Below, piece after piece: positions 5,941-53,012 of a stretch of 64,000 nt of DNA. The stretch lies in the sequence record PZ386957.1; one strand, 5' to 3'. Within the stretch, counting starts at the first letter, position 1; the number at the start of each line of letters is the position of its first letter. The DNA is from a phage. A model generated the notes under the pieces. That model did not search any database. It was not told the DNA's origin and worked only from the letters and a program-made list of their open reading frames with translations. Position numbers and translations under genes: made by a program.

Positions 5941-7380
5941 TTAAATGTCAAACAGGTCCGTAAGCGATGCCACTTTTTCATATTGCAGCTTTGCAGCCGT
6001 GGTAATGTTCTCCAGTGGTTTGACGAAAGTCTTATTGAACAACAAAGACCAGTCCAACCACTTTAACACCTCTGATTCAATTTCTGGAGGAATACGAGTA
6101 CCAGACAACCAACCAAAACAGATTTCTCCAAACGGATTTCGATCTTTGAGCGGTACGATCATAACTTTCTCGCCCTCACGAATCGGATCTAGTCCAAATT
6201 TTCGAGCATTACGATTATAACACAATACGCTCTTAACCGCATACGGACAGCCCTTAATCGGATACCCGTTTGAATCGCTGTATTTCTGTAGGTTGTTTGC
6301 AGATGATACCGCAGCAACCTCAAGATAGTCAAGTTTTCTAAATTCTTGCTCAAAAATACCGTAGTATTCCTGCAATGACTCTTCACCTTCCTGCAACATA
6401 CGACGAATACATTCTTTCAGTGATTTCTGACATGCTTTAGGTGTAGAACTACGTTGCGTTTCTAAGCCCATGATTTTTAGCTTAGGTTCAGCAAAGCGAG
6501 TTCCTTCCATATCCCAAACATTAAGAGCATAACGCTTTTTACCAGTCCAGAATCCACCGATACCCGCAGATTTCAACGGAGGACCAGCAATTGCCTCACG
6601 GTCCATAAACATCAAGTGCTCATAGTTGTTCATGTACTCGCATAACTCGCGATATCCCTTGTCGATAATAGGTTCCATTCGATGTTTACCGAAATTATCA
6701 AGGAAGTCAACAAGTTTTTCGGTATCGTCGAAACGGTCTTCCCCACCAACCTTATCAACAACATTGTTAACCAGCACATAAACGGAGTCAGTATCACAAT
6801 AACGAACATATGCAAAATCGGTTGTTCCGCAAAGTTCGTTTAAGTATTCGTTAATCTTACGCTCAATCCACTGAATTGCAAGCTGACCGAACAAAGTGAT
6901 CGCACTAGCATTACGCAGATCATACAAACGAAATTTCGGATTTCCTACATATTTTCAATGAGTCGCGCAACCAACTCACCCGCCGTTAGGCTGCTGCATA
7001 TCGCTATGCAGATAAGACTATATCACCTATCAACCGAAGTCAATAGCCCACCATTTCGAGCGCCATTAGCTTGCACCCTACACCGTTACACTCATCACGG
7101 TTAGTCGTTAGGCATTTACAGCATTATAGCTGATTTAGCACGGGATTGTCAACCAGTCCGTATACGTTGATATTCCCCGTTTAGATGGGTTTAAGGTGCG
7201 CTAGGATGTTTACGCACCATAAAGGCTGTTAATCAATACCTTTCGTGAAAGTTGGTTTGTGTTACATAGAATAGACTCGTCTTGACATATCGCTAGATGC
7301 CGTTCTAATTCCTCGATTGGTAACGAATCAAGATAGGCCAATTCTTCATCGGTGAAGTCTTTACGATGATCTATATTCAT
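5941..7380 (-). CDS. 43: DNA polymerase C-terminal subunit gp43B, intron-containing: exon 1 = 7212..7380, group I intron = 6948..7211, exon 2 = 5941..6947
   Basis: ATG at 7380 (AAGGAG RBS) overlaps the HEG stop as ATGA; exon 1 encodes MNIDHRKDFTDEEL...NTNQLSRKVLINSLYGA (motif B KxxxNSxYG); joining U7212 to U6947 reads ...LYGALGNPKFRLYDLRN, colinear with T4 ...LYGALGNIHFRYYDLRN; exon 2 carries motif C YCDTDSVYV; spliced product 391 aa. Confidence 0.82.
6948..7211 (-). ncRNA. group I self-splicing intron, ORF-less, within gene 43B
   Basis: 5' exon end GGUGCGU pairs with intron GCGCACC (P1, U-G wobble at splice site); adjacent intron CCUA pairs with 3' exon UAGG (P10); intron ends in G; internal P/Q/R/S-like elements (CGGGGAAUAUCAACG, AAUCCCGUGC, AACGACUAA, GAUAUAGUCU); two in-frame stops inside. 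Confidence 0.75.
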
Positions 7381-8198
7381 GATATATCTTTCTCCTTAAG
7401 CCGACAATTGTTAAAATGCCAGCGTTTTAAAGACTGTGCAACTCCAGATTTACCGCAATGTGGACATACAGCAATAATTTTCTTGCTTTCTTCCCAGCGT
7501 TTCTTTGCGGCTTCTTTCATCTTTTCTTTAGAGTCGTCAGACATTTTCTTACCTTTCATGCCCTTAACGCAATCTGGATTTTCTGCTATTCTAGCAAGCA
7601 TTCTTTGTCTTTGCAACTCTTTTTTCTCGTCGCTCCACCCTGCGGATATTTTATCACGTTCTTCCTGTGATAGCGTCTTACCAACTTGTTTGTGTGGATT
7701 TTTAGAATAATATTCTTTTAATCCTTTAGCGATCTTTGCCTTTGTATCATCAGAGTGAGATTTGTCAATATCTTTGTTGCTATTATACTTCTCGATGTTT
7801 CTTTTTGAAACGGCATCATAAAATTCTTTGTTTGACTTTCTCGTCTTTTTGATACCGTTAGAAACTTTGACAGCAATTACCGGATTTTTCATCGGGTTAT
7901 TGTCGCCGGAAGTGTCGATGTGATAGAAGCCACCGACACCGCCTAACGTGATGTTATATGTATCAGACCGCTTTAGAAAGTCTTCGTTTACGATCTCGGC
8001 CTCTTTGTCATAAGCGTCTTTCTCGTTATCATATTCAAACAGAATATCTTTATGGAAGTTTTCGACCCCATACTTCGCGATAGCTCGTTTGATATGAATA
8101 CCGCTACCCATATATGAATCATCTGGGTCGTCGGTCTTGTGTACACCAACATAGATCATATTGTTTATCTTATTTGTGATCCGATACACATAATACAT
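7377..8198 (-). CDS. freestanding GIY-YIG homing endonuclease (Seg-like) inserted between 43A and 43B
   Basis: 273 aa; N-terminal GIY-YIG module YVYRITNKINNMIYVGVH, repeated NUMOD3-like S..E.R.KIS segments, C-terminal CPHCGKSG zinc finger; start overlaps 43A stop (TAATG), stop overlaps 43B start (ATGA). Confidence 0.85.
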   Translation of the reverse strand: MYYVYRITNKINNMIYVGVHKTDDPDDSYMGSGIHIKRAIAKYGVENFHKDILFEYDNEKDAYDKEAEIVNEDFLKRSDTYNITLGGVGGFYHIDTSGDNNPMKNPVIAVKVSNGIKKTRKSNKEFYDAVSKRNIEKYNSNKDIDKSHSDDTKAKIAKGLKEYYSKNPHKQVGKTLSQEERDKISAGWSDEKKELQRQRMLARIAENPDCVKGMKGKKMSDDSKEKMKEAAKKRWEESKKIIAVCPHCGKSGVAQSLKRWHFNNCRLKEKDIS

Positions 8199-9685
8199 TA
8201 TTCACCTCGTCGTTTCTTTAACATCTCCTTAATCTTTTCAGCATTACGGTCACACGCCAACATCATGTTTTTGTACTGTTTACGCTGGTCGAACACCTTT
8301 TTGATTTCAATCGGTACTACACCCTGAATATCTTTTCGATACATCCAACCGTTAGGAGAACATGAGTATTCATCGCTAGGCCGTTCCGCTGTTTTATTAA
8401 TATAGTCGATCATTGGCGCGGTGTCAAATGATCCAGCTATAGTTTCCGGCGAAATGTTAACCTGTCGGATGATAGACGGATACAGACTTGTTAAGTCAAA
8501 GCTCATCATCCAACGGTAAGCATTAGGTACTGGTTCTTTTACAAAAGCACCTGGATACGTCTGCTTAGGCTGTATCTTATTTTCCGGTACTACTTTACCC
8601 TCAGCTTTCAGAGATCCGAAGATAATAGCATCCCATACCTTCATCGGGTTATACACATGGTTAAATTTAATCTTTGCATAGTAGCATAGACTATACACAA
8701 GATCGATAAATCCGCGCTTTTTATCAATCGCCAATACACGATCAACGTCGCCGATGTTATAATCGATGTAAAGTTGATGGTTGTCATCACGCAATTTCTT
8801 TAACGGACCATCATAATCAACCTTACCGATTCCTGTCTCATATTCAGCAACATAATCTAATGCATATGTTGGTTGAGTCGTAAAGCTGAATTTCTTGTAC
8901 AGGTCAATGTAATCAAGGCTTTCGATCCCCATGATCGTAAATGCTTCACGCTCGTTGCCAAAATCATCCTGTGAGATTCGGGATTTAATCTTACCGCACG
9001 GGCTTAATCGGTTTGCCGTTCGACTTCCAAACTTATTACTGATACGCTTAATGATATACGGGATATCGAATGTTTCTGTGTTCCAGCCAGTGAAACCAAC
9101 TGGTCGATTTTCCTCAAAGAATCGGATGTATTCTAACAGCAATTCATCTTCCGTATCGTAGACGTTATAAACAACACGCTCTACTATATCAGGTCGAAGA
9201 ATAGACTTTCTTGCTTCCCATATTTCACCGTTTTTGCCTTTCAAATCAAAGACAAAGAAACGATCATGTACGGAATCATAATGCGTAATTGCATCAATAG
9301 GATATTTTGCTTCTTCTGGCTTCGGGAATTCCGGCGCAGTAACCTCAATATCAACCCATGCTACACGGATTTTATTTCGGTCATATCGAATCTCACCCTT
9401 GTATGTGTCGGATAGATAGGAGATGATAAAATCATCCATTCCTAACGCCTCTTGCCCCATCTCTCCCATCTTTTTACGCCATTTGTTGGCCTCGTTCATA
9501 GATGGGAATTTTTTAGCAATGCAAGGCTTGCCATAGATATCTTTATAATTAGTAACCATACCAGGCGCGGCATGATGAAATAAAGTTGGCGTATACTCAA
9601 CGTAACGCTCTTGTTCTTGTCCGGTATCATCAATATAACGCTCGTAGATCTTATCACCTACTCTCTCACATGACAGAAAATACAT
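8198..9685 (-). CDS. 43: DNA polymerase N-terminal subunit gp43A (N-terminal and 3'-5' exonuclease domains, motif A)
   Basis: Start refined to ATG 9685 (MYFLSCERVGDKIYERYIDD vs T4 MKEFYISIETVGNNIVERYIDE); contains FDIPY, YNI.DV, DLTSLYPSIIRQVNISPET; ends with TAA where T4 gp43 continues. Confidence 0.9.
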   Translation of the reverse strand: MYFLSCERVGDKIYERYIDDTGQEQERYVEYTPTLFHHAAPGMVTNYKDIYGKPCIAKKFPSMNEANKWRKKMGEMGQEALGMDDFIISYLSDTYKGEIRYDRNKIRVAWVDIEVTAPEFPKPEEAKYPIDAITHYDSVHDRFFVFDLKGKNGEIWEARKSILRPDIVERVVYNVYDTEDELLLEYIRFFEENRPVGFTGWNTETFDIPYIIKRISNKFGSRTANRLSPCGKIKSRISQDDFGNEREAFTIMGIESLDYIDLYKKFSFTTQPTYALDYVAEYETGIGKVDYDGPLKKLRDDNHQLYIDYNIGDVDRVLAIDKKRGFIDLVYSLCYYAKIKFNHVYNPMKVWDAIIFGSLKAEGKVVPENKIQPKQTYPGAFVKEPVPNAYRWMMSFDLTSLYPSIIRQVNISPETIAGSFDTAPMIDYINKTAERPSDEYSCSPNGWMYRKDIQGVVPIEIKKVFDQRKQYKNMMLACDRNAEKIKEMLKKRRGE

Positions 9686-9717
9686 AATATAAACTCCTTC
9701 ACTTACGAAAGACACTC

Positions 9718-40032: not shown

Positions 40033-40431
40033 CTAAGCCAGCTTAGTGAGTTTATAGATGGTTTTAAAGCATAGAACTTTAATATCGTCTAAAACGCTCT
40101 GTAGAGAGCTATCAACATCATTATAAATCTCACTTGCCATTTGCGCTAATTCCTGCAAATAGGCAACTTCGCTAATCTCCTTTCGGACGACCAACGTCGG
40201 TTGATATCTTCCGGTAATACCGATATTAGTTTCCGTGAAAGTATCAACCAATTCTTGCATTTCAAGATAGAACTCTTCTAGCGCCTTATGTTTTGCGTAA
40301 GACCCCGGACCAGTTACCCCAAAATGCGCAGAATGCATATAAGTAACGCTCATTAGGCATTCACCAATAAAGCGGTCCACATTATTAGCCTTTCCTTCAT
40401 CGGAAGTTTTTCTAAATTCGCTGAATTTCAA
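40033..40431 (-). CDS. hypothetical protein
   Basis: 132 aa ORF. Confidence 0.5.
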   Translation of the reverse strand: MKFSEFRKTSDEGKANNVDRFIGECLMSVTYMHSAHFGVTGPGSYAKHKALEEFYLEMQELVDTFTETNIGITGRYQPTLVVRKEISEVAYLQELAQMASEIYNDVDSSLQSVLDDIKVLCFKTIYKLTKLA

Positions 40432-40721
40432 TTTCGTCGATTCTCCACATTATAAGCAACTACAAATTGCTTCGCAGCATATTCGCCCATCATAAAACAT
40501 TGTCTTGCATCCATACACCTACTACGTGCATATGTTTTCATTAAATGCTCATGAAATTTTTGGCTAGTTTCAACGGATGGTTGGATCTTGCTTATATAGA
40601 CAATCATCGCACCATCAAAATAATCGGTAAAATCACCGACTGGATTATTTTGGTCGGCACTTACACTACCGACTGCCATTAGACAAAATGCTGCGGTTAA
40701 AGTTTTACGAATAAATGACAT
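40428..40721 (-). CDS. small secreted/periplasmic protein
   Basis: 97 aa; N-terminal signal-peptide-like sequence MSFIRKTLTAAFCLMAVGSVSA; TATAAATA-like element upstream. Confidence 0.5.
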   Translation of the reverse strand: MSFIRKTLTAAFCLMAVGSVSADQNNPVGDFTDYFDGAMIVYISKIQPSVETSQKFHEHLMKTYARSRCMDARQCFMMGEYAAKQFVVAYNVENRRN

Positions 40722-42708: not shown

Positions 42709-43299
42709 TCAATAGCGTTTAGTTTTAAGGATGCCTTTACTCTTTAAATGGTTAGCCTTTTTTAGTACATCATCAGCATAACCCAATCCGGCTTTATAGT
42801 TCCATCCAGCATTGTAAGAAGCTAGCGCGAGTCGGATATTACCGTTTCGAACATCCAGCCAGTATGCTAACTCATCCATCGCGTAGAATGCAGAAACCTC
42901 GCGATTCATGATAAAGTTAATTGTCTGGCGATCACTCATTTTAACACCGCGCTTTGCATTTTTCGCTTTCACCGTTTTAAGGTAATTTTGAAATAATCCA
43001 TAAGCATGATGATTTTTCTTTGGTGCTAAGTTTGCACCCGCGCTTGATTCTTGCCATGCGATACCCGCCAGGATGTGACCTAAACCCTTTCCGTTATAGC
43101 GAATATTCGGATGGTCATTTTTCAACTTACCGCTTTTCTCGAATTGTTCGCCGTATTGATAGGCGAAATGTAAATTATCTAGTTGGTGTGCTGTAAAGTT
43201 GTCTATCGGCGCTTTTTTGATCGGTGCGCTAGTCGATGCGTGTGCAGCACCAACGGCTAGTGACAGACTCAATACTATCGCTTTTAGAACTTTTAACAT
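42709..43299 (-). CDS. secreted lytic transglycosylase-like protein (SLT domain)
   Basis: 196 aa; signal peptide; SLT-like catalytic AWQESS and GLFQ, AYN motifs. Confidence 0.7.
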   Translation of the reverse strand: MLKVLKAIVLSLSLAVGAAHASTSAPIKKAPIDNFTAHQLDNLHFAYQYGEQFEKSGKLKNDHPNIRYNGKGLGHILAGIAWQESSAGANLAPKKNHHAYGLFQNYLKTVKAKNAKRGVKMSDRQTINFIMNREVSAFYAMDELAYWLDVRNGNIRLALASYNAGWNYKAGLGYADDVLKKANHLKSKGILKTKRY

Positions 43300-45967: not shown

Positions 45968-46459
45968 TCAGTTGATACCTAAGCCAATGAAAATAGGTTG
46001 GTCTTCTACATTACCCATCCCAACACTAAGTCGATTTACTTCTAAAAACTGCAATACGCTGTCAGTAAATCCGCGCATGGTAGTATCTAGGATAAAAATT
46101 GTTTTGTCAAGCCGACGACCTCGCCATGTAATCGGATTCAGGAAAGTTCGGATAGACGTGCAATCTATATTTGAAATGTTGATATTTTCACCACGACCGC
46201 GATCTCGGATCGTTTTGGCATGTTCCCGCGTCGTTGAAACGATAAAGACACTATAGCCTTTTCGCGTATAATGGTCATATAACTTGATTGTAGCGTCTGT
46301 ATGCCCTGTTTGACGTCCTAAATTGATTGAGACGATGGAATCTAGGTCATCAGCAAAATTGCGCTTCTTACGGCGTTCTATGATGCCATTTACGGAAGAA
46401 ACACACATAGCATAAATCAAATCTTTACTTTCTAATTCTAAATCAATGTCAATATTCAT
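45968..46459 (-). CDS. hypothetical protein
   Basis: 163 aa ORF. Confidence 0.5.
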   Translation of the reverse strand: MNIDIDLELESKDLIYAMCVSSVNGIIERRKKRNFADDLDSIVSINLGRQTGHTDATIKLYDHYTRKGYSVFIVSTTREHAKTIRDRGRGENINISNIDCTSIRTFLNPITWRGRRLDKTIFILDTTMRGFTDSVLQFLEVNRLSVGMGNVEDQPIFIGLGIN

Positions 46460-46519
46460 AATAAGTCTCCAGTAAACGGGGAGAGATCCTTAGATTGTCT
46501 CCCCATTGATGGTTAATAA

Positions 46520-46909
46520 TTATTTTGGATCTGGGTAAGCAGAACTCAGCAATTCAAAATGCACACCGTCTTTGAATGCCAAAAAATCCCCGCCCCATTT
46601 AATCGGAATATTCAATTCCTTACTAGCTTGTTTAAATGCATCAGCGATCATTCGGTAATATTTCATGTTCCATGTATCCTTATCTTTCGGATACGCTACA
46701 ACATCAACCGCGAAGCCATGAAGATGGCGAGATTTCATAGTCTTAGACTTACCTTCCGCAAAATATTTCTTCTGCGTTTCCAGACTGCGCACACCTTCCG
46801 TAATGCCAAAATCTACAGGAGTTAATTCAAGTGCGCGAGTCGCCACCTTAACCAGATCTGGATGCACACCAACAAGTCGGTCTTTACTTCTTTGAGATAA
46901 TTTAAACAT
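46520..46909 (-). CDS. peptidase M15-family cell-wall hydrolase (T5-type L-Ala-D-Glu endopeptidase, candidate endolysin)
   Basis: 129 aa; zinc-ligand motifs SRHLHGFAVD and GVHFEL; resembles recalled phage T5 endolysin. Confidence 0.78.
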   Translation of the reverse strand: MFKLSQRSKDRLVGVHPDLVKVATRALELTPVDFGITEGVRSLETQKKYFAEGKSKTMKSRHLHGFAVDVVAYPKDKDTWNMKYYRMIADAFKQASKELNIPIKWGGDFLAFKDGVHFELLSSAYPDPK

Positions 46910-46937
46910 TATTCACCCCCTTTGTGAGTGATAATAT

Positions 46938-47129
46938 TTAGATTCCGGTGATCCTGCATAGAGTTCTTGTATTAGCACCAATCAGGATAGCATTAACGAC
47001 AACCATTCCCCAATCAACCCACGGATTATTATAAATGCTGAATCCGTTTGCAAGGCCAAATACAAGCATTCCGGTACACATACTCAGAGCAATAATCAAC
47101 ATCACGGTAAAACCAAATGCAAATTTCAT
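46938..47129 (-). CDS. small membrane protein
   Basis: 63 aa, two hydrophobic helices; directly upstream of the M15 peptidase gene. Confidence 0.45.
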   Translation of the reverse strand: MKFAFGFTVMLIIALSMCTGMLVFGLANGFSIYNNPWVDWGMVVVNAILIGANTRTLCRITGI

Positions 47130-47130
47130 A

Positions 47131-47361
47131 TTATTTTCCTTTTCTCTGTTTACGTTTATAAAAGTAATACATTACCTCATCGCGTCCGGTGATCCAACAT
47201 GCTAGGGCAGTAAACAAGTTTACAATTCCCAACACACCTACGGATGCGGCGCTATCAACGGACATAGGAACAGTAAAGGCCATAGCTAGCATCGCAACGC
47301 CACAAATGATATTAAGCACCATTATAATAAGACCGAAGAAAACCATTGTCAATCCTCCCAA
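47131..47361 (-). CDS. small membrane protein
   Basis: 76 aa, hydrophobic, basic C-terminus. Confidence 0.45.
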   Translation of the reverse strand: MGGLTMVFFGLIIMVLNIICGVAMLAMAFTVPMSVDSAASVGVLGIVNLFTALACWITGRDEVMYYFYKRKQRKGK

Positions 47362-47540
47362 ATAAGAAAACCAACAATCACACCCATAATAAGAGAGGAT
47401 GCACCACTAATCAAGCAACCCGCGCCAAGTGATTCCCACCAGATCAGGGAAGCGACAATAACGCAAAATCCCCAGACTACCGCAATTATAACATAGACAA
47501 ACATAATCCAAAATAGATACTTGTTCATAATAAATCCCAT
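47349..47540 (-). CDS. small membrane protein
   Basis: 63 aa, hydrophobic. Confidence 0.45.
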   Translation of the reverse strand: MGFIMNKYLFWIMFVYVIIAVVWGFCVIVASLIWWESLGAGCLISGASSLIMGVIVGFLIWED

Positions 47541-47713
47541 TCACCAATCAAATATGAAAATAGCCAAATAAACAGAAACGAGACAATTGATCCAGCAAGC
47601 AAAATAATATTAGAGAATCCGCCGTTTATCCAGTCGATCAAACAGAATATTCCAGTATAGAAACACAACCCAATTACAAAACAGACGATAAGCAACCATA
47701 GGTAAAACGCCAT
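47525..47713 (-). CDS. small membrane protein
   Basis: 62 aa, hydrophobic. Confidence 0.45.
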   Translation of the reverse strand: MAFYLWLLIVCFVIGLCFYTGIFCLIDWINGGFSNIILLAGSIVSFLFIWLFSYLIGEWDLL

Positions 47714-47774
47714 AGAAAGCCCTCCAGTGAGCTAAATTAGTGCGGGTAGTACATTCTCCTACCCGCGTTGTTAA

Positions 47775-47933
47775 TCATCGTATAGCGTGTTCTATGGCGA
47801 CTCCTACAAGGCCACTAACAACACCAGTACAGAAAGCAACTAGAGCATTCATTCGGTCTTTAGGGATCATTGCAAACAGTACAACACCCACACAGAAAGC
47901 CATCACCATTGAAGTTAACATTTGTTCCATCAT
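47775..47933 (-). CDS. small membrane protein (52 aa, not in ORF track)
   Basis: ATG immediately after the upstream stop; hydrophobic MMEQMLTSMVMAFCVGVVLFAMIP...; antisense to plus-strand ORF 47740..47955. Confidence 0.4.
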   Translation of the reverse strand: MMEQMLTSMVMAFCVGVVLFAMIPKDRMNALVAFCTGVVSGLVGVAIEHAIR

Positions 47934-47935
47934 TA

Positions 47936-48274
47936 TTACACCTTTAAAGTCATAGACGCATAAACATTAATACCAGGCCAATTGGGATCACAATTATACT
48001 CAACATCCCACAAATAAAGCGGTTTGGATGTATCAGCCAAGTTTTTAAAATCTTCTACCCACATTTCAAGGCTATAGGATGGATAAACTAGGCTATCATA
48101 TCCACCGTAACGTTGGCCTACTGGTCTGTCAGTAAAAACTACCTCAAGATCCGGTAATTCTTTTTCTAGGATAACCGCCAGCGCATAAATCAGGCGGTCT
48201 TCCTTGTTACGCTGCCGTAGGACCGTTGTCAGTTGGTTCTTCTGGTTCACTAGCAAGTACCTCCACATTTTCAC
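47936..48274 (-). CDS. hypothetical protein, start uncertain
   Basis: 112 aa ORF with non-ATG first codon; overlaps the upstream gene. Confidence 0.4.
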   Translation of the reverse strand: MKMWRYLLVNQKNQLTTVLRQRNKEDRLIYALAVILEKELPDLEVVFTDRPVGQRYGGYDSLVYPSYSLEMWVEDFKNLADTSKPLYLWDVEYNCDPNWPGINVYASMTLKV

Positions 48275-48527
48275 AGAATGAAATTTTCACGGACACAATT
48301 TTACCATAAGTGAAGAATGAATATACATTATCGAGATATTCAACATCACCTACAATCACATCAAACTGCGGGTCAGCCACTGCCGCAACATATTCTACCA
48401 GTTCATCAAGAGAATGCAACTTAATTTCATCAATTCGGCTATATTTGGTTGCATCTTTAATTTTAAAACCACGTTCTTTCAGCTTATCAATCAGAATTTC
48501 ACGCGGAGTTTCAAACAGTTTGCTCAT
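48207..48527 (-). CDS. hypothetical protein
   Basis: ORF track 48207..48545; start refined to ATG 48527 (GAGG RBS). Confidence 0.5.
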   Translation of the reverse strand: MSKLFETPREILIDKLKERGFKIKDATKYSRIDEIKLHSLDELVEYVAAVADPQFDVIVGDVEYLDNVYSFFTYGKIVSVKISFCENVEVLASEPEEPTDNGPTAA

Positions 48528-48549
48528 AATATAATCCTCACACAATTAA

Positions 48550-48744
48550 TCAATGGTCAATAATCTTACACATTACAATTGAAAGAACAAAGACAGCAAC
48601 CCACATATAGATCCCAGCAATCAGGGCAATTTCAATCTCACAGTATCCAAGAAGTACAACAGGAATAAAAACAAACATACAGACCAGCGCAAAGAAACTA
48701 GCAAAGGCGCTCGAAAATCCGATGGCAGTATTAGTAATCTTCAT
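48550..48744 (-). CDS. small membrane protein
   Basis: 64 aa, hydrophobic. Confidence 0.45.
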   Translation of the reverse strand: MKITNTAIGFSSAFASFFALVCMFVFIPVVLLGYCEIEIALIAGIYMWVAVFVLSIVMCKIIDH

Positions 48745-48750
48745 ATTAAG

Positions 48751-48948
48751 TCATCTCACAGTTTTATAAATGAAAACAATAAAATCCCAGACAAAAAAGA
48801 CAGTGAAAATAATCATCGTCAAGACAGTAAACACTGTCAGATTTTCATCGTTAGTTAATTCATAGTCGCCCATCCATACAATCACAAGATATAGCATTGA
48901 AAGAACGGAAGCACCTACGAAGTTGAAAAACATATTCTTGAGCGTCAT
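48751..48948 (-). CDS. small membrane protein
   Basis: 65 aa, hydrophobic. Confidence 0.45.
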   Translation of the reverse strand: MTLKNMFFNFVGASVLSMLYLVIVWMGDYELTNDENLTVFTVLTMIIFTVFFVWDFIVFIYKTVR

Positions 48949-48949
48949 A

Positions 48950-49132
48950 TTAACAATCCTCGCGGCTTAAGTCAACTGCAATTGCATACAGCATAATGAA
49001 TATGCTAGCAGATCCTAGAATCAATGCACCTTCACATGTTGTAACCCGCTCGTCAAAGTATAGCATCAGCCATCCGAGGATGTTAAAGGCGCATACAGCG
49101 CCTATGTTGGCTAACCAATTAATCTTTTTCAT
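48950..49132 (-). CDS. small membrane protein
   Basis: 60 aa, hydrophobic. Confidence 0.45.
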   Translation of the reverse strand: MKKINWLANIGAVCAFNILGWLMLYFDERVTTCEGALILGSASIFIMLYAIAVDLSREDC

Positions 49133-49140
49133 ATTGTACC

Positions 49141-49467
49141 TTAGAAAGAAACTGTTTTCAAGAAATCCAGATTTTCAGTGCCGAAAGTAGAAAAGTAGTG
49201 TTTTCCTTTTTCGGTTTTAGAGAAAGCGATTGTCTTCTCTACATGGTGACGGAAGCCAGACAGACGATCACCCAGATCAAGGCGGCAAGCGTAAGTAGTG
49301 CCGTTTTCGAAAGTAACCTCGATTTGAGTTTTGTCATATTCGCCTTCATAGGCTTTTGCTGCGGCGTCCTGTGCTTTACGCTCGAAGTCTTCGAAGTGGA
49401 ATACTTCGTTTGCGTTAGCGAATACGGAAGATTCAGAGAAGATAACTTTAACAGATACTGGTTTCAT
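49141..49467 (-). CDS. hypothetical protein
   Basis: ORF track 49141..49536 trimmed to ATG 49467 (AGGAG RBS), downstream of the promoter at 49505-49533. Confidence 0.5.
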   Translation of the reverse strand: MKPVSVKVIFSESSVFANANEVFHFEDFERKAQDAAAKAYEGEYDKTQIEVTFENGTTYACRLDLGDRLSGFRHHVEKTIAFSKTEKGKHYFSTFGTENLDFLKTVSF

Positions 49468-49504
49468 TTTGATACTCCTTTGTGTGTTTCGTTTCGATGG
49501 GTGT

Positions 49505-49533
49505 ATTATGCTATACACCCTATCGTATGTCAA
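49505..49533 (-). promoter_or_regulatory. sigma70-type early promoter
   Basis: Minus strand TTGACA-17-CATAAT. Confidence 0.55.
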
Positions 49534-49540
49534 CAACTTT

Positions 49541-49729
49541 TTAGTCTTTTTTCATAATTTCTAGGGCAGCTTCTACCGCACCTTTCCAACCTTCCCACAT
49601 GATGGACATGGTAAGGAAGTTAAAGCACCCGCAGGAATCGGCCTTTTTAGAAATAAACCATTCTACAAACTCTGTGCTAATGCCATTCTCTTTAGCAGAT
49701 TCGCGCAGTTGTTCAATCTGGTCTTCCAT
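49541..49729 (-). CDS. hypothetical small protein
   Basis: 62 aa ORF. Confidence 0.45.
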   Translation of the reverse strand: MEDQIEQLRESAKENGISTEFVEWFISKKADSCGCFNFLTMSIMWEGWKGAVEAALEIMKKD

Positions 49730-49738
49730 AGTATCACC

Positions 49739-49927
49739 TCAACACTTAACGTTATTCAAACGGTTTTGAAAATAAACATAACATGCATAATTCTGTTTTG
49801 GCTGTACCGTATCAGATAAGCACGCTTTTACCGCTTCGCGATCCGATGGATCTACACCCTCAGCTTTAAGTAGTGCTAAGATCTGGTAGTAGCGTTCTCT
49901 CAGTTGCGCTAATGGTTTCTCTCCCAT
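49739..49927 (-). CDS. hypothetical small protein
   Basis: 62 aa ORF. Confidence 0.45.
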   Translation of the reverse strand: MGEKPLAQLRERYYQILALLKAEGVDPSDREAVKACLSDTVQPKQNYACYVYFQNRLNNVKC

Positions 49928-49936
49928 AATACCCCC

Positions 49937-50158
49937 TTACAGTTGATCAGCAATGTAAGCATGACAAGCTCGAAGTTTCATTAATGCACTACCTTTCACT
50001 TCGCCTACGATGTTCATAACTTCTAAGCGGTCAGATGGATTCATTTTAGAGCACCAGATCTGGTTAGCCAGTTCCAGCTTGCTCATATTAGGTTCCATCT
50101 CAAACAGTTCACGCTCAAAGTCGATAATTTCTTTTGCTGCTTCTTTAAAGTTGATCAT
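49937..50158 (-). CDS. hypothetical small protein
   Basis: 73 aa; GGGAGA RBS; promoter at 50188-50216. Confidence 0.5.
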   Translation of the reverse strand: MINFKEAAKEIIDFERELFEMEPNMSKLELANQIWCSKMNPSDRLEVMNIVGEVKGSALMKLRACHAYIADQL

Positions 50159-50187
50159 TTTGATTCTCCCGTTCAGTTGATGGGTGT

Positions 50188-50216
50188 ATTGTAGGGGAGT
50201 TGTCCTCCCCTGTCAA
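50188..50216 (-). promoter_or_regulatory. sigma70-type early promoter
   Basis: Minus strand TTGACA-17-TACAAT; spacer inverted repeat GGGGAGG..CTCCCC. Confidence 0.55.
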
Positions 50217-50226
50217 CACTTTTTTA

Positions 50227-50412
50227 TTAGAAATATGCAATATAGTTTGCCAGTCCTACAGAGTCATCATTCGGCATTGCTTTTACTGCCAGTTCAAATC
50301 CTGCTTCAACTTTCTGTTTAGCGGATTCTTCGTTATAACCCCAGATCACCAGAATAGCTACTACGTTTTCTTTGCTTACTGCTTTCAGTGCTTTAGTGAT
50401 GCGACGTGCCAT
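50227..50412 (-). CDS. hypothetical small protein
   Basis: 61 aa; AGGAGA RBS; promoter at 50459-50487. Confidence 0.5.
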   Translation of the reverse strand: MARRITKALKAVSKENVVAILVIWGYNEESAKQKVEAGFELAVKAMPNDDSVGLANYIAYF

Positions 50413-50458
50413 AATTTGATTCTCCTAGTTAGAAAGTGTATCTCGTTTCGATGGGTGT

Positions 50459-50487
50459 ATTATGCTATAGACCGGATCTGGTGTCAA
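50459..50487 (-). promoter_or_regulatory. sigma70-type early promoter
   Basis: Minus strand TTGACA-17-CATAAT. Confidence 0.55.
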
Positions 50488-50514
50488 CAACTTTTTTAAA
50501 AAAATTTAGGTAAT

Positions 50515-50540
50515 AAAAAAGCCACTCCGAAGAGTGGCTT
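50515..50540 (-). terminator. rho-independent terminator
   Basis: GCCACTC-TTCGG-AGTGGC hairpin followed by a U-tract on the minus strand. Confidence 0.6.
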
Positions 50541-50542
50541 AT

Positions 50543-50690
50543 AGGGAAGGTAGCGAATCTTCCTTGTCTCCAACCTGCTAGCGGCCTAGCAAGTGAATGC
50601 TTTAGCGTACCGGATTACCCCCATACGCTGTAATAAATGCGGCTAGGTGACGTCCAAATCATTCTAACCGCGCTGTTTTTAGTTCACTAT
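50543..50690 (-). ncRNA. candidate small structured RNA (speculative)
   Basis: About 150-nt GC-rich ORF-free interval between a TATAAATA late-promoter-like element (about 50683-50690) and the terminator at 50515-50540; three predicted hairpins; no tRNA T-loop. Confidence 0.25.
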
Positions 50691-50908
50691 TATTTATATA
50701 GCTTTCTATCGCTACGTTTCCGGTCTTCTTCCTTGATACAATTAAATGCATCAAACAGACACATACCGCTGATAGTGAACATGATCAGGTTTTCGACGAT
50801 ATCCCACGTTTTAGCCCCTGTGCAGATATTCCAAACAGTCATAAAAGCAAATAGTGCAGAAGAGATCACAAGCATGATACTTGCTAAGATATAAAAAGTC
50901 ATTTTCAT
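50690..50908 (-). CDS. small membrane protein
   Basis: 72 aa, hydrophobic. Confidence 0.45.
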   Translation of the reverse strand: MKMTFYILASIMLVISSALFAFMTVWNICTGAKTWDIVENLIMFTISGMCLFDAFNCIKEEDRKRSDRKLYK

Positions 50909-51099
50909 GGTTTTACCTCAATTCTTCGATATTCATCACACATCCACGCAGTAAGCAAGAATCCCATCACATAAGCAACAAAATACGTTAATGCTTCTTC
51001 TGGTTCGGTGCTATGCGCCATCATCAGACCAGCGAGAAAGGTCTTAACAATTACATTTAAAATAATTAGCCACGCAAATAATTTCATCGTTTGCCCCAT
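50905..51099 (-). CDS. small membrane protein
   Basis: 64 aa, hydrophobic. Confidence 0.45.
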   Translation of the reverse strand: MGQTMKLFAWLIILNVIVKTFLAGLMMAHSTEPEEALTYFVAYVMGFLLTAWMCDEYRRIEVKP

Positions 51100-51308
51100 T
51101 TCGGACGAGATTTTTCAAATTTATACATTCCGTAACAATCTCGGATCATCCACGTAACAAGAGCACCAGTCAATACAGAAAGTACACAGAAAAAGTAAAA
51201 CGGTCCAGTTGCATTGTCAACATGAGCAAGCCAGGTAAAGAAAGCACATGCTAAGAACGTAAAGAACATCATAAAACACAGGAAAGCGAAATATTTTATG
51301 CTACTCAT
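51084..51308 (-). CDS. small membrane protein
   Basis: ORF track 51084..51326; start refined to ATG 51308 (MSSIKYFAFLCF). Confidence 0.45.
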   Translation of the reverse strand: MSSIKYFAFLCFMMFFTFLACAFFTWLAHVDNATGPFYFFCVLSVLTGALVTWMIRDCYGMYKFEKSRPKWGKR

Positions 51309-51411
51309 AGCGCCACCATACAACAAATCATAAGAAAGCCCAACGCAATAAGAATTGCATCAAATTTAGTGAACTCCGGTCCACCTATCAACATCATTCG
51401 TTCTATCTCGT

Positions 51412-51657
51412 TCATAGCGTACATACCCATCTGAAAGCTCCACATAAAGCGATCAGTAGACTAGGTATAAACGAGACTAAAACAAGATAACAAAAATCAT
51501 CTAAGGTAACACCGGAATAGCTACCAACTGTAATCACACCGATGATCAGACACAGAAAGAAAACAAATGCAATCAGAAACAAAGTATTGCTAAACAGTTT
51601 AGTGATCATTAGACACCCCACGACGGTCAATTTCAAAAACTTTCTTATCACCAACAA
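51412..51657 (-). CDS. small membrane protein, start uncertain
   Basis: 81 aa hydrophobic ORF overlapping the upstream gene. Confidence 0.4.
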   Translation of the reverse strand: MLVIRKFLKLTVVGCLMITKLFSNTLFLIAFVFFLCLIIGVITVGSYSGVTLDDFCYLVLVSFIPSLLIALCGAFRWVCTL

Positions 51658-51808
51658 AGCAGGTCACTACCGCCTCGTTGACTTCCGCAAATTGTTGTGT
51701 TACCCACTTAAGGTCATTGCGCATCAATGTTTTATTAATAACAAATGTTGTGCCTTTCTTATCCTTACCCATAAATTTTGCTTTAACCACATCAAAATCA
51801 TATTCCAT
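51599..51808 (-). CDS. hypothetical small protein
   Basis: 69 aa ORF with GGTGA RBS. Confidence 0.45.
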   Translation of the reverse strand: MEYDFDVVKAKFMGKDKKGTTFVINKTLMRNDLKWVTQQFAEVNEAVVTCFVGDKKVFEIDRRGVSNDH

Positions 51809-51817
51809 ATTATCACC

Positions 51818-51988
51818 TTATTTGCTAATCGCTAAACCCAATCCAAAGAGAGCACCCGATGCTACAGTATATCCGAAAGTTTCAAGGGCAGTAAAGATAT
51901 CGAAGCCACCAGCTAACAGAGTTGCAGCAAACATAGAGCCACCTGCGAACATAAACACATTTCCAAAAGTTTTAGCAATAATTTTCAT
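51818..51988 (-). CDS. small membrane protein (56 aa, not in ORF track)
   Basis: ATG 51988 with AGGAGA RBS downstream of a promoter at about 52015-52048; hydrophobic MKIIAKTFGNVFMFAGGSMFAATLLAGGFDIF... Confidence 0.4.
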   Translation of the reverse strand: MKIIAKTFGNVFMFAGGSMFAATLLAGGFDIFTALETFGYTVASGALFGLGLAISK

Positions 51989-52054
51989 GTTGATTCTCCT
52001 CTCGTTTGTTTGTGGGGGTATCTTACTACCCCCGTTTCATGTTGTCAATTGTTT

Positions 52055-52432
52055 TTAAGAAAATTTTACTTCGTCTACAATGTCTTTCATGACATTGATT
52101 TCCATTCCGGTCAGAACACGTTGGAACATGTGCTGCACATACGCTTTCAGGTATCCATTTGATGGCTTGCTATCAAAAGTCTTTTTAGTGTAGTAGTCAT
52201 CACCGAAAGCTACTGTAATTACATTTTCGTCGTCGTTCCAAGCGATATAAGCAAATTTGCCGTTATCCCAGAAGCGAGCACTAATTGCTACTTTTGTTGA
52301 ATCGAATCCTACTTCGCTGTGAGATTCAAGAACTACTTGCGTGCCAGTTTCTTTATGAATGTAGTAGCGGGATACTAAGTCAAAGTTACGGGTGTAGTGA
52401 CATTCGAAGTTATCTTTAAACATCATCATCAT
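52055..52432 (-). CDS. hypothetical protein
   Basis: 125 aa; AGGAGA RBS; promoter at 52471-52499. Confidence 0.5.
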   Translation of the reverse strand: MMMMFKDNFECHYTRNFDLVSRYYIHKETGTQVVLESHSEVGFDSTKVAISARFWDNGKFAYIAWNDDENVITVAFGDDYYTKKTFDSKPSNGYLKAYVQHMFQRVLTGMEINVMKDIVDEVKFS

Positions 52433-52541: not shown

Positions 52542-53012
52542 TTACAGTTTGGTCGTCCACTCCAGATCTAGATCTTCGACATACTCATGAGATCGGACAA
52601 TCTCTAAATCGAACTCTAGGTCAGTGCCAAATTTACGCGCACCAACATCATAAGAAAGCGTGATATGCGGTACATATTCAGGATAATCCCACGTCGCACC
52701 TAAAGCAGTTCCGATATCGTGTCTGAATTGCATGTAGTCGCTTTCAAATGCCAGCACAAGTGCATTAGTACCGGATTGAGTTTCAAACACTTTCAGATGG
52801 CATAGAGAGCCTAAGAACTTCTCCCCTTCTTCTGGGATAAACGGAACATAAACACGAGAATATAAGATAGTGCTATGCAGTTTATCACGAGGAACGGCAT
52901 TAGGAAGATCGTAGAACTCTTGCAATTTTTCAATGCGGTCTAGTGTATCCTCAGTGAATTTAACCGCCGCATATGTACCTTTAACGGATTCTTTGAACGG
53001 GGTCATAATCAA
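52542..53012 (-). CDS. 2H-phosphoesterase (two HxT/S motifs), probable Acb1/gp57B-like cyclic-nucleotide phosphodiesterase
   Basis: 156 aa; HSTI and HITL motifs at positions typical of the 2H fold; sits immediately upstream of 57A-like and gene 1 as 57B does in T4. Confidence 0.65.
   Translation of the reverse strand: MIMTPFKESVKGTYAAVKFTEDTLDRIEKLQEFYDLPNAVPRDKLHSTILYSRVYVPFIPEEGEKFLGSLCHLKVFETQSGTNALVLAFESDYMQFRHDIGTALGATWDYPEYVPHITLSYDVGARKFGTDLEFDLEIVRSHEYVEDLDLEWTTKL

Follow-up and report, generated by a model that had tools for sequence, protein, structure and literature searches.

A T5-type M15 endolysin at the gene e position and fourteen genes for predicted small membrane proteins in the vs.8-57B region of an RB49-like phage

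Overview and genomic context

We analyzed a stretch of phage DNA of 64,000 nucleotides (nt) (sequence record PZ386957.1; hereafter, the window), centering on positions 46,520 to 51,988, where the gene of an M15 peptidase endolysin is preceded, in transcription order, by runs of very small hydrophobic open reading frames (ORFs). The phage is RB49-like and T4-type (genus Krischvirus, family Straboviridae), and this part of its genome is the hyperplastic early region between vs.8 and 57B. The best overall explanation, to which we assign a probability of about 0.8, is that the endolysin is of the EndoRB49 type, sits at the e locus and is translationally gated, and that the small ORFs encode early accessory membrane effectors, not components of the lysis clock.

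A megablast search with positions 46400-52100 matched 61 phage records, all RB49-like coliphages, at 89-91% nucleotide identity over essentially the full query, and blastn agreed. Every gene between 44.5 and 54.5 kb lies on the minus strand, as do all other genes and regulatory elements located below, and the gene order corresponds one-for-one to RB49p098-p129. Pfam searches identified the flanking genes as an nrdC.11-like nucleotidyltransferase, vs.6 (glycyl radical), 57B (which matches Acb1), 57A, and gene 1 (deoxynucleoside monophosphate kinase). The order in the window is vs.6, vs.8, the M15 gene, the small ORFs, dmd, 57B, 57A, 1, 3; that of T4 is vs.6, vs.7, vs.8, denV, ipII, ipIII, e, nudE, e.2-e.8, rnaC, rnaD, tRNAs, ipI, 57B, 57A, 1, 3. 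The M15 gene thus occupies the interval that holds T4 e (vs.8 to 57B), a case of non-orthologous displacement in place. An exact look-up of five window proteins found none of them on record.

The endolysin is a new allele of a characterized M15 peptidase

The endolysin gene (46520-46909) encodes a single-domain Zn L-alanyl-D-glutamate peptidase of the M15_C group, 129 amino acids (aa) long and orthologous to EndoRB49 (RB49 ORF102c). The protein matches Pfam Peptidase_M15_4 (PF13539; 38.2 bits, cut-off 25) and PHROG 465 "endolysin" (E = 4.5e-63). By sequence E-value, its matches to solved structures include PDB 8q2g (1e-73) and 23ri (8e-74) ("peptidoglycan L-alanyl-D-glutamate endopeptidase"), Serratia ChiX (5opz, 8e-31) and the T5 endolysin (2mxz, 3e-19). 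The Zn ligands H62, D69 and H117 and the catalytic D114 are all present; in an alignment of the query with 120 homologues the three ligands are invariant, and D114 is found in 120 of the 121 sequences. M15 was the sole family model matched, and the protein did not fall into the GH24 family of T4 e-type lysozymes; RB49 itself is listed as lacking gene e (PMC3014915). EndoRB49 has been purified, and its enzymology and catalytic residues (PMC10487532, PMC8140593), including a muralytic assay (PMC8140593, PMC10487532), are published. Given the Pfam and PDB matches and the EndoRB49 work, the preliminary description of this region was therefore right to call the cell-wall hydrolase T5-type M15 and not T4-type, a point already known for the genus. 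By analogy with the RB49 protein (PMC8140593), the window endolysin would be expected to cleave L-Ala-D-Glu. It carries no signal peptide, transmembrane (TM) segment or hydrophobic segment, and would therefore need a holin to gain access to the wall.

The enzyme is nevertheless a new allele. It is 86% identical to the RB49 protein and 84-87% identical to seven Krischvirus proteins, and the differences from these seven lie nearly all in residues 96-123, so that its C-terminal third reads as a distinct allele relative to the seven genomes. The best match among phage records reaches 87.6%, and metagenomic proteins reach 95-96%. Codon 109 (46583-46585) encodes Phe, not the Trp of EndoRB49 (W109) and EndoT5 (W114). 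Trp109 has been described as strictly conserved and important, and a W109F mutant keeps 30-40% of its activity (EndoRB49 literature). Phe109 occurs in 12 of the 121 aligned sequences, the window included; it is a natural variant and not a disqualifier for M15_C membership.

The endolysin leader folds into a hairpin with a late-promoter-like motif

A hairpin in the endolysin leader (46910-46945) pairs the Shine-Dalgarno (SD) sequence GGGGGUGA and the AUG, and a late-promoter-like motif, TCTAAATA (46942-46935), lies in its 5' arm. When the RNA from 46960 to 46895 was folded, GGGGGUGA and the AUG were paired with UAAAUAUUAUCACUC (-12.7 kcal/mol, z = -2.35). The intergenic segment between m63, the nearest small ORF, and the endolysin gene (46910-46937, 28 nt) is 100% conserved in eight genomes. 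The motif TCTAAATA is identical to the -10 element of the annotated "late RB49 promoter" upstream of gene 59, and two other annotated RB49 late promoters read TGTAAATA; no exact TATAAATA precedes the endolysin gene, where the TCTAAATA variant alone is found. Motifs of the form T-N-TAAATA number just five on the minus strand of the whole window, and the remaining four precede rI, a structured RNA candidate at 50.5 kb (see below) and two annotated RB49 late-promoter sites.

This arrangement recalls T4 gene e, in which two TATAAATA motifs lie in a hairpin that pairs GGAGG and the AUG, and where the hairpin cuts translation of early read-through transcripts about 100-fold (PMC3014915). In metagenomic relatives the leader sequence differs and the design is kept: the leaders of L011-13 fold at -18.4 kcal/mol, and those of L014-15 at -18.8 kcal/mol (z = -3.7), with an inner stem CUCUUAC/GUAGGAG and the motif GATAAATA. 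The SD sequence and AUG are paired in three sequence-distinct leader variants, the inner stem changing from CACUC/GGGUG to CUCUUAC/GUAGGAG. By sequence and fold, then, the leader has the features of T4 e-type gating, namely a hairpin that pairs the SD sequence and AUG and a late promoter in its 5' part, and we infer that the M15 gene would be subject to e-like translational gating. This regulatory detail seems not to have been described before.

Fourteen small ORFs encode predicted membrane mini-proteins

The small ORFs, each named here by its length in aa, begin directly upstream of the endolysin gene with m63 (46938-47129; RB49p103), which has one strong and one weak TM segment. Moving away from the endolysin gene, it is followed by m71 (47131-47346; RB49p104), with two TM segments and a basic C-terminal tail, and by m59 (47349-47528; RB49p105), m62 (47525-47713; RB49p106), m52 (47775-47933; RB49p107), m64 (48550-48744; position of RB49p110), m65 (48751-48948; RB49p111) and m60a (48950-49132; RB49p112), each with two TM segments. 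A further group comprises m72 (50690-50908; RB49p118), with two TM segments and a charged C-terminal tail; m60b (50905-51087; RB49p119), with two TM segments; m74 (51084-51308; RB49p120), with two TM segments and a basic C-terminal tail; m41 (51305-51430; RB49p121), with a single C-terminal TM segment; m65b (51412-51609; RB49p122), with two TM segments; and m56 (51818-51988; RB49p124), which is Gly/Ala-rich with two weak TM segments. The 14 ORFs (41-74 aa) have grand average of hydropathy values of 0.44-1.73 and one or two hydrophobic segments of 17-19 residues each (Kyte-Doolittle). Two-helix hairpins are predicted for 12 of them, 10 of which would be N-in/C-in by the positive-inside rule, with m52 N-out and m62 ambiguous.

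TMHMM results for the RB49 orthologues have been on record since 2006 (Nolan 2006, PMC1524935, Additional file 2). Of the 20 "novel" RB49 ORFs given TM helices there, 13 belong to this region, namely 103c, 104c, 106c, 107c, 110c-112c, 118c-122c and 124c (PMC1524935); we found no literature on the mini-ORFs beyond that table. Small TM ORFs are concentrated here, accounting for 12 of 20 genes versus 6 of 107 in the remaining window (crude gene call; Fisher p = 7e-8).

The preliminary description had reported about 14 such ORFs of 52-81 aa in runs upstream of the endolysin, and had proposed topology prediction as a check. All 14 are indeed hydrophobic with predicted TM segments in our hydropathy script, the TMHMM listing includes the RB49 counterparts of 13 of them, and the runs exist as described, except that the run at 50690-51988 includes Dmd, which is not a membrane protein. 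The lengths need correction: those of 76, 80 and 81 aa use an upstream TTG, and starting at the ATG with an SD sequence gives 71, 74 and 65 aa, as in RB49, while the lower bound of 52 aa fails because one ORF has only 41-46 aa.

Such short ORFs (41-74 aa), lacking homologues outside one genus and in some cases skipped by several annotators (e.g., in W115, Cognac and 011D4), might be suspected of being chance open frames in T-rich early DNA, or an untranslated leader of the endolysin, and not genes. Several lines of evidence make this very improbable. All 14 are intact in RB49, W115, GEC-3S, Skers, Cognac, 011D4 and G37-3, aside from a handful of differing starts and what look like sequencing errors in Cognac; aa identities to these seven genomes are 67-99%, m64 excepted, so that the frames stay open despite up to 30% aa divergence, and in the metagenomic relative L014 they do so at 31-33% identity. 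Variable sites are enriched at third codon positions, and the per-gene ratio of non-synonymous to synonymous differences (pN/pS) is 0.07-0.60. Pooled over the 13 alignable ORFs, pN/pS between the window and RB49 is 0.28 in the annotated frame (Fisher p = 8e-24) versus 1.04 and 1.47 in the other frames, this single pair being used to avoid pseudo-replication. Nearly all starts have an SD sequence 4-9 nt upstream or overlap the preceding stop codon (ATGA coupling), and the enrichment of small TM ORFs in this region also speaks against chance. As far as sequence analysis reaches, the non-gene explanation is refuted, and the 14 small ORFs, noted earlier and specific to the genus, are real genes under purifying selection for predicted inner-membrane mini-proteins.

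The small ORFs are fast-evolving orphans

Each of the 14 ORFs matches its own PHROG, function-unknown in every case, at E = 1e-25 to 1e-52. Searches with Pfam (E up to 1) and NCBIfam returned only noise, none of it near threshold, and a tblastn search with the concatenate of the 14 proteins against 50,697 phage records gave matches confined to 59 Krischvirus records. For m63, a search of 5.8 billion proteins found only homologues of at least 89% identity, and for m71 a search of 1.84 billion representatives found one related cluster. No homology was detected between the 14 ORFs and the syntenic ORFs of T4 (e.2-e.8, trna.2-4, tk.1-3, vs.3-7).

The uniform size (52-74 aa) and two-TM hairpin, the tandem and often overlapping arrangement, and a weakly similar C-terminal tail in m71 and m74 (W-x-x-x-RD...MY-F-K...GK) could suggest that the 14 ORFs are a single paralogous family which arose by tandem duplication of one two-TM gene, in the manner of an immunity array. 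We consider this origin improbable, as all-against-all blastp and phmmer comparisons gave nothing significant (best E = 0.004 in a 24-sequence database), hhalign comparisons of ortholog alignments gave a probability of at most 5.4% for all 91 pairs, and PHROGs, which are built by remote-homology clustering, hold all 14 in separate families.

The ORFs also change quickly. The m64 protein is about 35% identical to its counterpart in seven genomes (RB49 type) and 83-92% identical to that of JSE, MIZ4/5, Whisky, phiS, SSG23 and Makalu; this split at one position, with the same two-TM form, indicates that two alleles circulate. A sister lineage (L014/L015), whose endolysin is 79% identical to that of the window, has a shorter Acb1-endolysin interval with five two-TM ORFs, among them three homologues, of m56, m60a and m52 (31-33% identity; in L014, 31%, 31% and 33%, respectively). 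Its soluble neighbors are 40-61% identical, and no called dmd gene was found in L014/L015. Fast-changing sequences of stable architecture, expressed early and located beside dmd and acb1, would fit accessory membrane effectors of exclusion, takeover or counter-defence.

Two long early operons carry the small ORFs

Five early promoters of the sigma-70 type were identified. One, at 52499-52471, matches the consensus at 11/12 positions. The next (52048-52020, TTGACA-17-TAAGAT, 10/12, with a GGGGG/CCCCC stem) heads m56, dmd, m65b, m41, m74, m60b and m72, which are followed by a terminator. The promoter at 50487-50459 (TTGACA-17-CATAAT, 11/12) heads the DUF7421 gene and forms, with a terminator, a cassette (50540-50459) of the promoter-early stem-loop (PeSL) type; that at 50216-50188 (11/12), with a GGGG/CCCC stem between its hexamers, also of the PeSL type, heads three small soluble ORFs. 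The last (49533-49505, TTGACA-17-CATAAT, 11/12) heads LPD25, m60a, m65, m64, two soluble ORFs, m52, m62, m59, m71, m63 and the endolysin gene. Intrinsic terminators lie at 52535-52516 and 50540-50519. Equivalents of these promoter and terminator sites are annotated as such in GEC-3S.

A/T-rich upstream tracts and a conserved leader are common to the cassettes, two of which have stems of a G-run and a C-run. PeSL elements have been defined for RB49 and phi1 (Arbiol et al. 2010, PMC2839356), and their features are found at 52535-52471, 52048-52020, 50540-50459, 50216-50188 and 49533-49505. Nolan 2006 (PMC1524935) describes novel ORFs as apparently co-expressed with early genes. A near-consensus sigma-70 promoter (TTGACA-17-TATTAT, 11/12) was also seen at 47324-47352, inside coding sequence at the m59/m71 junction; judged by its sequence, it could provide an internal early start for m71, m63 and the endolysin gene, or be a chance occurrence.

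A lysis role for the small ORFs is unlikely

The preliminary description had suggested that some of the small ORFs could be holin, antiholin or spanin-like, and others superinfection-exclusion or membrane-modifying factors. The first suggestion found no support. RB49 is annotated with a holin (t), spanins (pseT.2/pseT.3), rI and rIIA/B, and the window encodes an RI antiholin (40428-40721; Pfam Antiholin, 76 bits), part of the T4-type lysis system and preceded by an exact TATAAATA at 40762-40755; related metagenomic loci also carry the antiholin. With these roles already filled by T, RI and PseT.2/PseT.3, a holin, antiholin or spanin role for the mini-ORFs is unlikely. Against the holin models of Pfam the 14 ORFs reached at best E = 0.13-0.17 (12-13 bits versus cut-offs of 27-28) and against those of NCBIfam nothing, and none matched Pfam Antiholin (PF24205). 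The long periplasmic domain of an i-spanin is absent from all 14, whose loops and tails have at most 24 residues except for the weakly hydrophobic 38-residue C-terminal part of m63, and no classical lipobox was seen on reading the 14 sequences by eye, with no script or tool to score it.

The question nevertheless deserves weighing for individual ORFs. It could be argued that at least one of them acts with the M15 endolysin in lysis timing, as a holin, a pinholin or an antiholin-like factor, the most plausible being m63, m71, m72 and m74. The m63 ORF ends just 28 nt before the endolysin start, across the fully conserved spacer, and L014 has a different 61-aa two-TM ORF in the same slot, directly upstream of its endolysin; in other phages, such as Sasha, a holin adjoins related M15 lysins; and m71, m72 and m74 look like class II holins, in that they are small, have at least one TM segment and end in a charged C-terminus, a generic combination that is non-specific. 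Opposed to this are the T holin, RI and spanins present in the genus, the failure to reach any holin model, and the timing: the mini-ORF clusters are preceded by early-type promoters only, a late motif being found before the endolysin gene and before none of the mini-ORFs, and a functional holin made early would be expected to kill the cell prematurely. We consider such a lysis-timing role improbable for any of the 14.

A superinfection-exclusion or membrane-modifying role, the second suggestion, is plausible by analogy. T4 Imm (83 aa, two TM segments) and Sp are early superinfection-exclusion membrane proteins. None of the 14 ORFs matched Pfam Imm_superinfect at E up to 1, the shared feature being only the two-TM hairpin.

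Neighboring genes and a structured RNA candidate

Two known counter-defence genes, dmd and 57B/acb1, lie within or beside the membrane-ORF clusters. Dmd (51599-51808; Pfam Dmd, 57.8 bits, and annotation) is a soluble antitoxin against RnlA/LsoA-type toxins and is co-transcribed with the fourth membrane-ORF cluster, and the 57B homologue (52542-53012) matches Pfam Acb1 (E = 1.5e-51), which acts against the cyclic-oligonucleotide-based antiphage signalling system (CBASS). The clusters are also interspersed with genes for small soluble proteins: two overlapping ORFs of 110 and 106 aa (RB49p108 and p109; 47936-48527), strongly conserved and with no assigned function; LPD25 (49141-49467); gp55.3/DUF5490 (49541-49729); ORFs of 62 aa (49739-49927) and 73 aa (49937-50158); and DUF7421 (50227-50412). 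The DUF7421 gene with its early promoter (50223-50490) has a counterpart of 73-77% nucleotide identity in many T1-like coliphages, which are about 50 kb in size, and positions 49769-50161 are 81% identical to phage GaoY1-9D. These matches outside the genus indicate that early cassettes are horizontally shared between unrelated phage families.

A candidate small RNA or structured 3' untranslated region (50519-50698) consists of an exact late-promoter motif TATAAATA (50698-50691), about 150 nt of stem-loops and the terminator at 50540-50519. This TATAAATA is one of just three exact copies in 64 kb, and for the two late motifs the promoter supplements of Nolan 2006 list nothing at the matching RB49 coordinates. 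Folding gives the stretch several stem-loops (minimum free energy -64.7 kcal/mol, z = -4.97), and its identity across Krischvirus genomes is 97.5%, versus 83.8% for adjacent coding sequence; L014/L015 keep both the RNA and its TATAAATA, with compensatory changes at six base pairs. Rfam holds no family for it, giving weak terminator-like matches only; it has no similarity to T4 rnaC or rnaD; blastn outside Krischvirus matched only the terminator hairpin; and no second copy exists within the window.

Two further observations concern other parts of the window. A second murein-active candidate is encoded at 42709-43299 by the vs.1 orthologue, which adjoins regB. This 196-aa protein has a signal-like N-terminus together with an SLT lytic transglycosylase domain (Pfam SLT, 26 bits) and is a candidate exported protein, separate from the endolysin finding. 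The DNA polymerase gene 43 is interrupted (5941-9715). It comprises a 505-aa ORF, 43A (8198-9715); a GIY-YIG endonuclease ORF (7377-8198; Pfam GIY-YIG); a 56-aa ORF (7210-7380) equivalent to gp43 residues 503-557 and just 58% identical to RB49; a group I intron of about 264 nt (match at 6994-7245; Rfam RF00028, 52 bits, gathering cut-off 50, E = 1.8e-12), with probable boundaries at about 6949-7212; and the rest of gene 43, which is 99% identical. No record among the 50,697 phage genomes covers more than 16% of the insertion, and no group I introns were reported in RB49 (Nolan 2006, PMC1524935). The arrangement may represent a free-standing endonuclease together with an ORF-less intron (collaborative homing).

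Proposed model and significance

Under the explanation that we favor, a gated e-locus lysin alongside early accessory membrane effectors, the endolysin would remain in the cytoplasm and reach the murein only once the T4-type holin T, regulated by RI, opens the membrane, after which the PseT.2/PseT.3 spanins would disrupt the outer membrane. The endolysin gene would be read through from the early operon, its early translation probably being blocked by the hairpin that pairs the SD sequence and AUG; late transcripts, which start from the TCTAAATA within the hairpin's 5' arm, would be missing this arm and so open to translation, as experiments have shown for T4 e. The mini-proteins would appear within the first minutes of infection and act at the inner membrane as accessory effectors, each probably dispensable on its own, whose likely roles include blocking the entry of competing phages (Imm-like), retuning host membrane proteins and countering membrane-linked defence.

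Several points weigh against this explanation. The z-score of the window leader hairpin is only moderate (-2.35), and the late motif has a C at position -12, which has been called rare outside Aeh1 (Nolan 2006, PMC1524935). Gene t lies outside the window, so that its presence in this phage is taken from the genus. The resemblance to class II holins or pinholins, generic as it is, extends to m71, m72 and m74, with two TM segments and a highly charged C-tail, and to m63, which adjoins the lysin. The TM and topology calls come from a simple hydropathy and positive-inside script plus the published TMHMM results for RB49, and the role proposed for the mini-proteins draws only on their architecture, timing and context.

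A broader combination is possible, and we offer it tentatively: that the mini-proteins are an early arsenal at the membrane, evolving fast and directed at competing phages or membrane-linked defences, that the device of a late promoter within a hairpin at the ribosome-binding site was kept or re-invented when the M15 gene displaced e, and that the 150-nt stretch behind TATAAATA is an unannotated late small RNA. In favor of the arsenal part, the two m64 alleles share just 35% identity, the sister lineage keeps the architecture at 31-33% identity, and some mini-ORFs share an operon with dmd, next to acb1.

The value of cataloguing is small here: the phage type and the enzyme were known, and the hydrophobic ORFs had been recorded. 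The interest lies in what they may reveal. These 5.4 kb hold roughly two in three of the RB49 "novel ORFs" predicted to be small TM proteins, which makes the region a target for function discovery, and the two early operons, one with Dmd and with Acb1 adjoining, are a place to seek new exclusion or counter-defence functions. The natural Phe109 allele offers a ready test of the role of the "invariant" Trp in M15_C peptidases. If the predicted e-like gating holds, it would show regulation surviving non-orthologous gene displacement, the logic of a late promoter in a ribosome-binding-site hairpin outliving the displaced gene e.

Comparison with known systems

The closest relative of the window endolysin is EndoRB49 (PDB 8q2g, 23ri; MEROPS M15_C), which is alike in its 129 aa, single domain, Zn and catalytic residues, genomic slot and neighbors, and differs in the allele of residues 96-123 and the change of Trp109 to Phe. 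The T5 endolysin (EndoT5, 2mxz) and ChiX (5opz) belong to the same M15_C family by sequence, and the Zn and catalytic residues are shared with EndoT5; T5-like lysins, however, are just about 36-38% identical to the window endolysin, EndoT5 is activated by Ca2+ whereas EndoRB49 is not, and Serratia ChiX is a bacterial protein that serves chitinase secretion.

In its setting, the gene most resembles T4 e (McPheeters 1986; reviewed in PMC3014915), which lies in the same vs.8-57B interval, is likewise reached by read-through from early promoters, and has, like the window gene, a hairpin that pairs the SD sequence and AUG and whose 5' arm contains or adjoins a late motif. The T4 e enzyme is a GH24 muramidase, whereas that of the window is a peptidase of unrelated fold and chemistry; the T4 e promoter motif is TATAAATA, whereas that of the window lysin is TCTAAATA; and gating has been shown experimentally for T4 e and is predicted for the window lysin. 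Between its lysin gene and 57B, T4 also has TM-bearing ORFs with no known function (e.2, e.3, e.4, e.7 and trna.4), which are fewer (five), mostly larger (61-130 aa) and without detectable homology to the window ORFs.

T4 Imm and Sp are small early inner-membrane proteins comparable to the predicted mini-proteins, Imm sharing the two-TM hairpin and size range with 12 of the ORFs. The PeSL cassettes in the hyperplastic regions of RB49 and phi1 also combine a sigma-70 promoter, an A/T tract and G/C-run stem-loops flanking small ORFans, and relatives there vary by cassette replacement, as in the window. Unlike the PeSL pattern, most of the 14 membrane ORFs lack such flanking elements of their own and stand instead in two long operons that are conserved across the genus.

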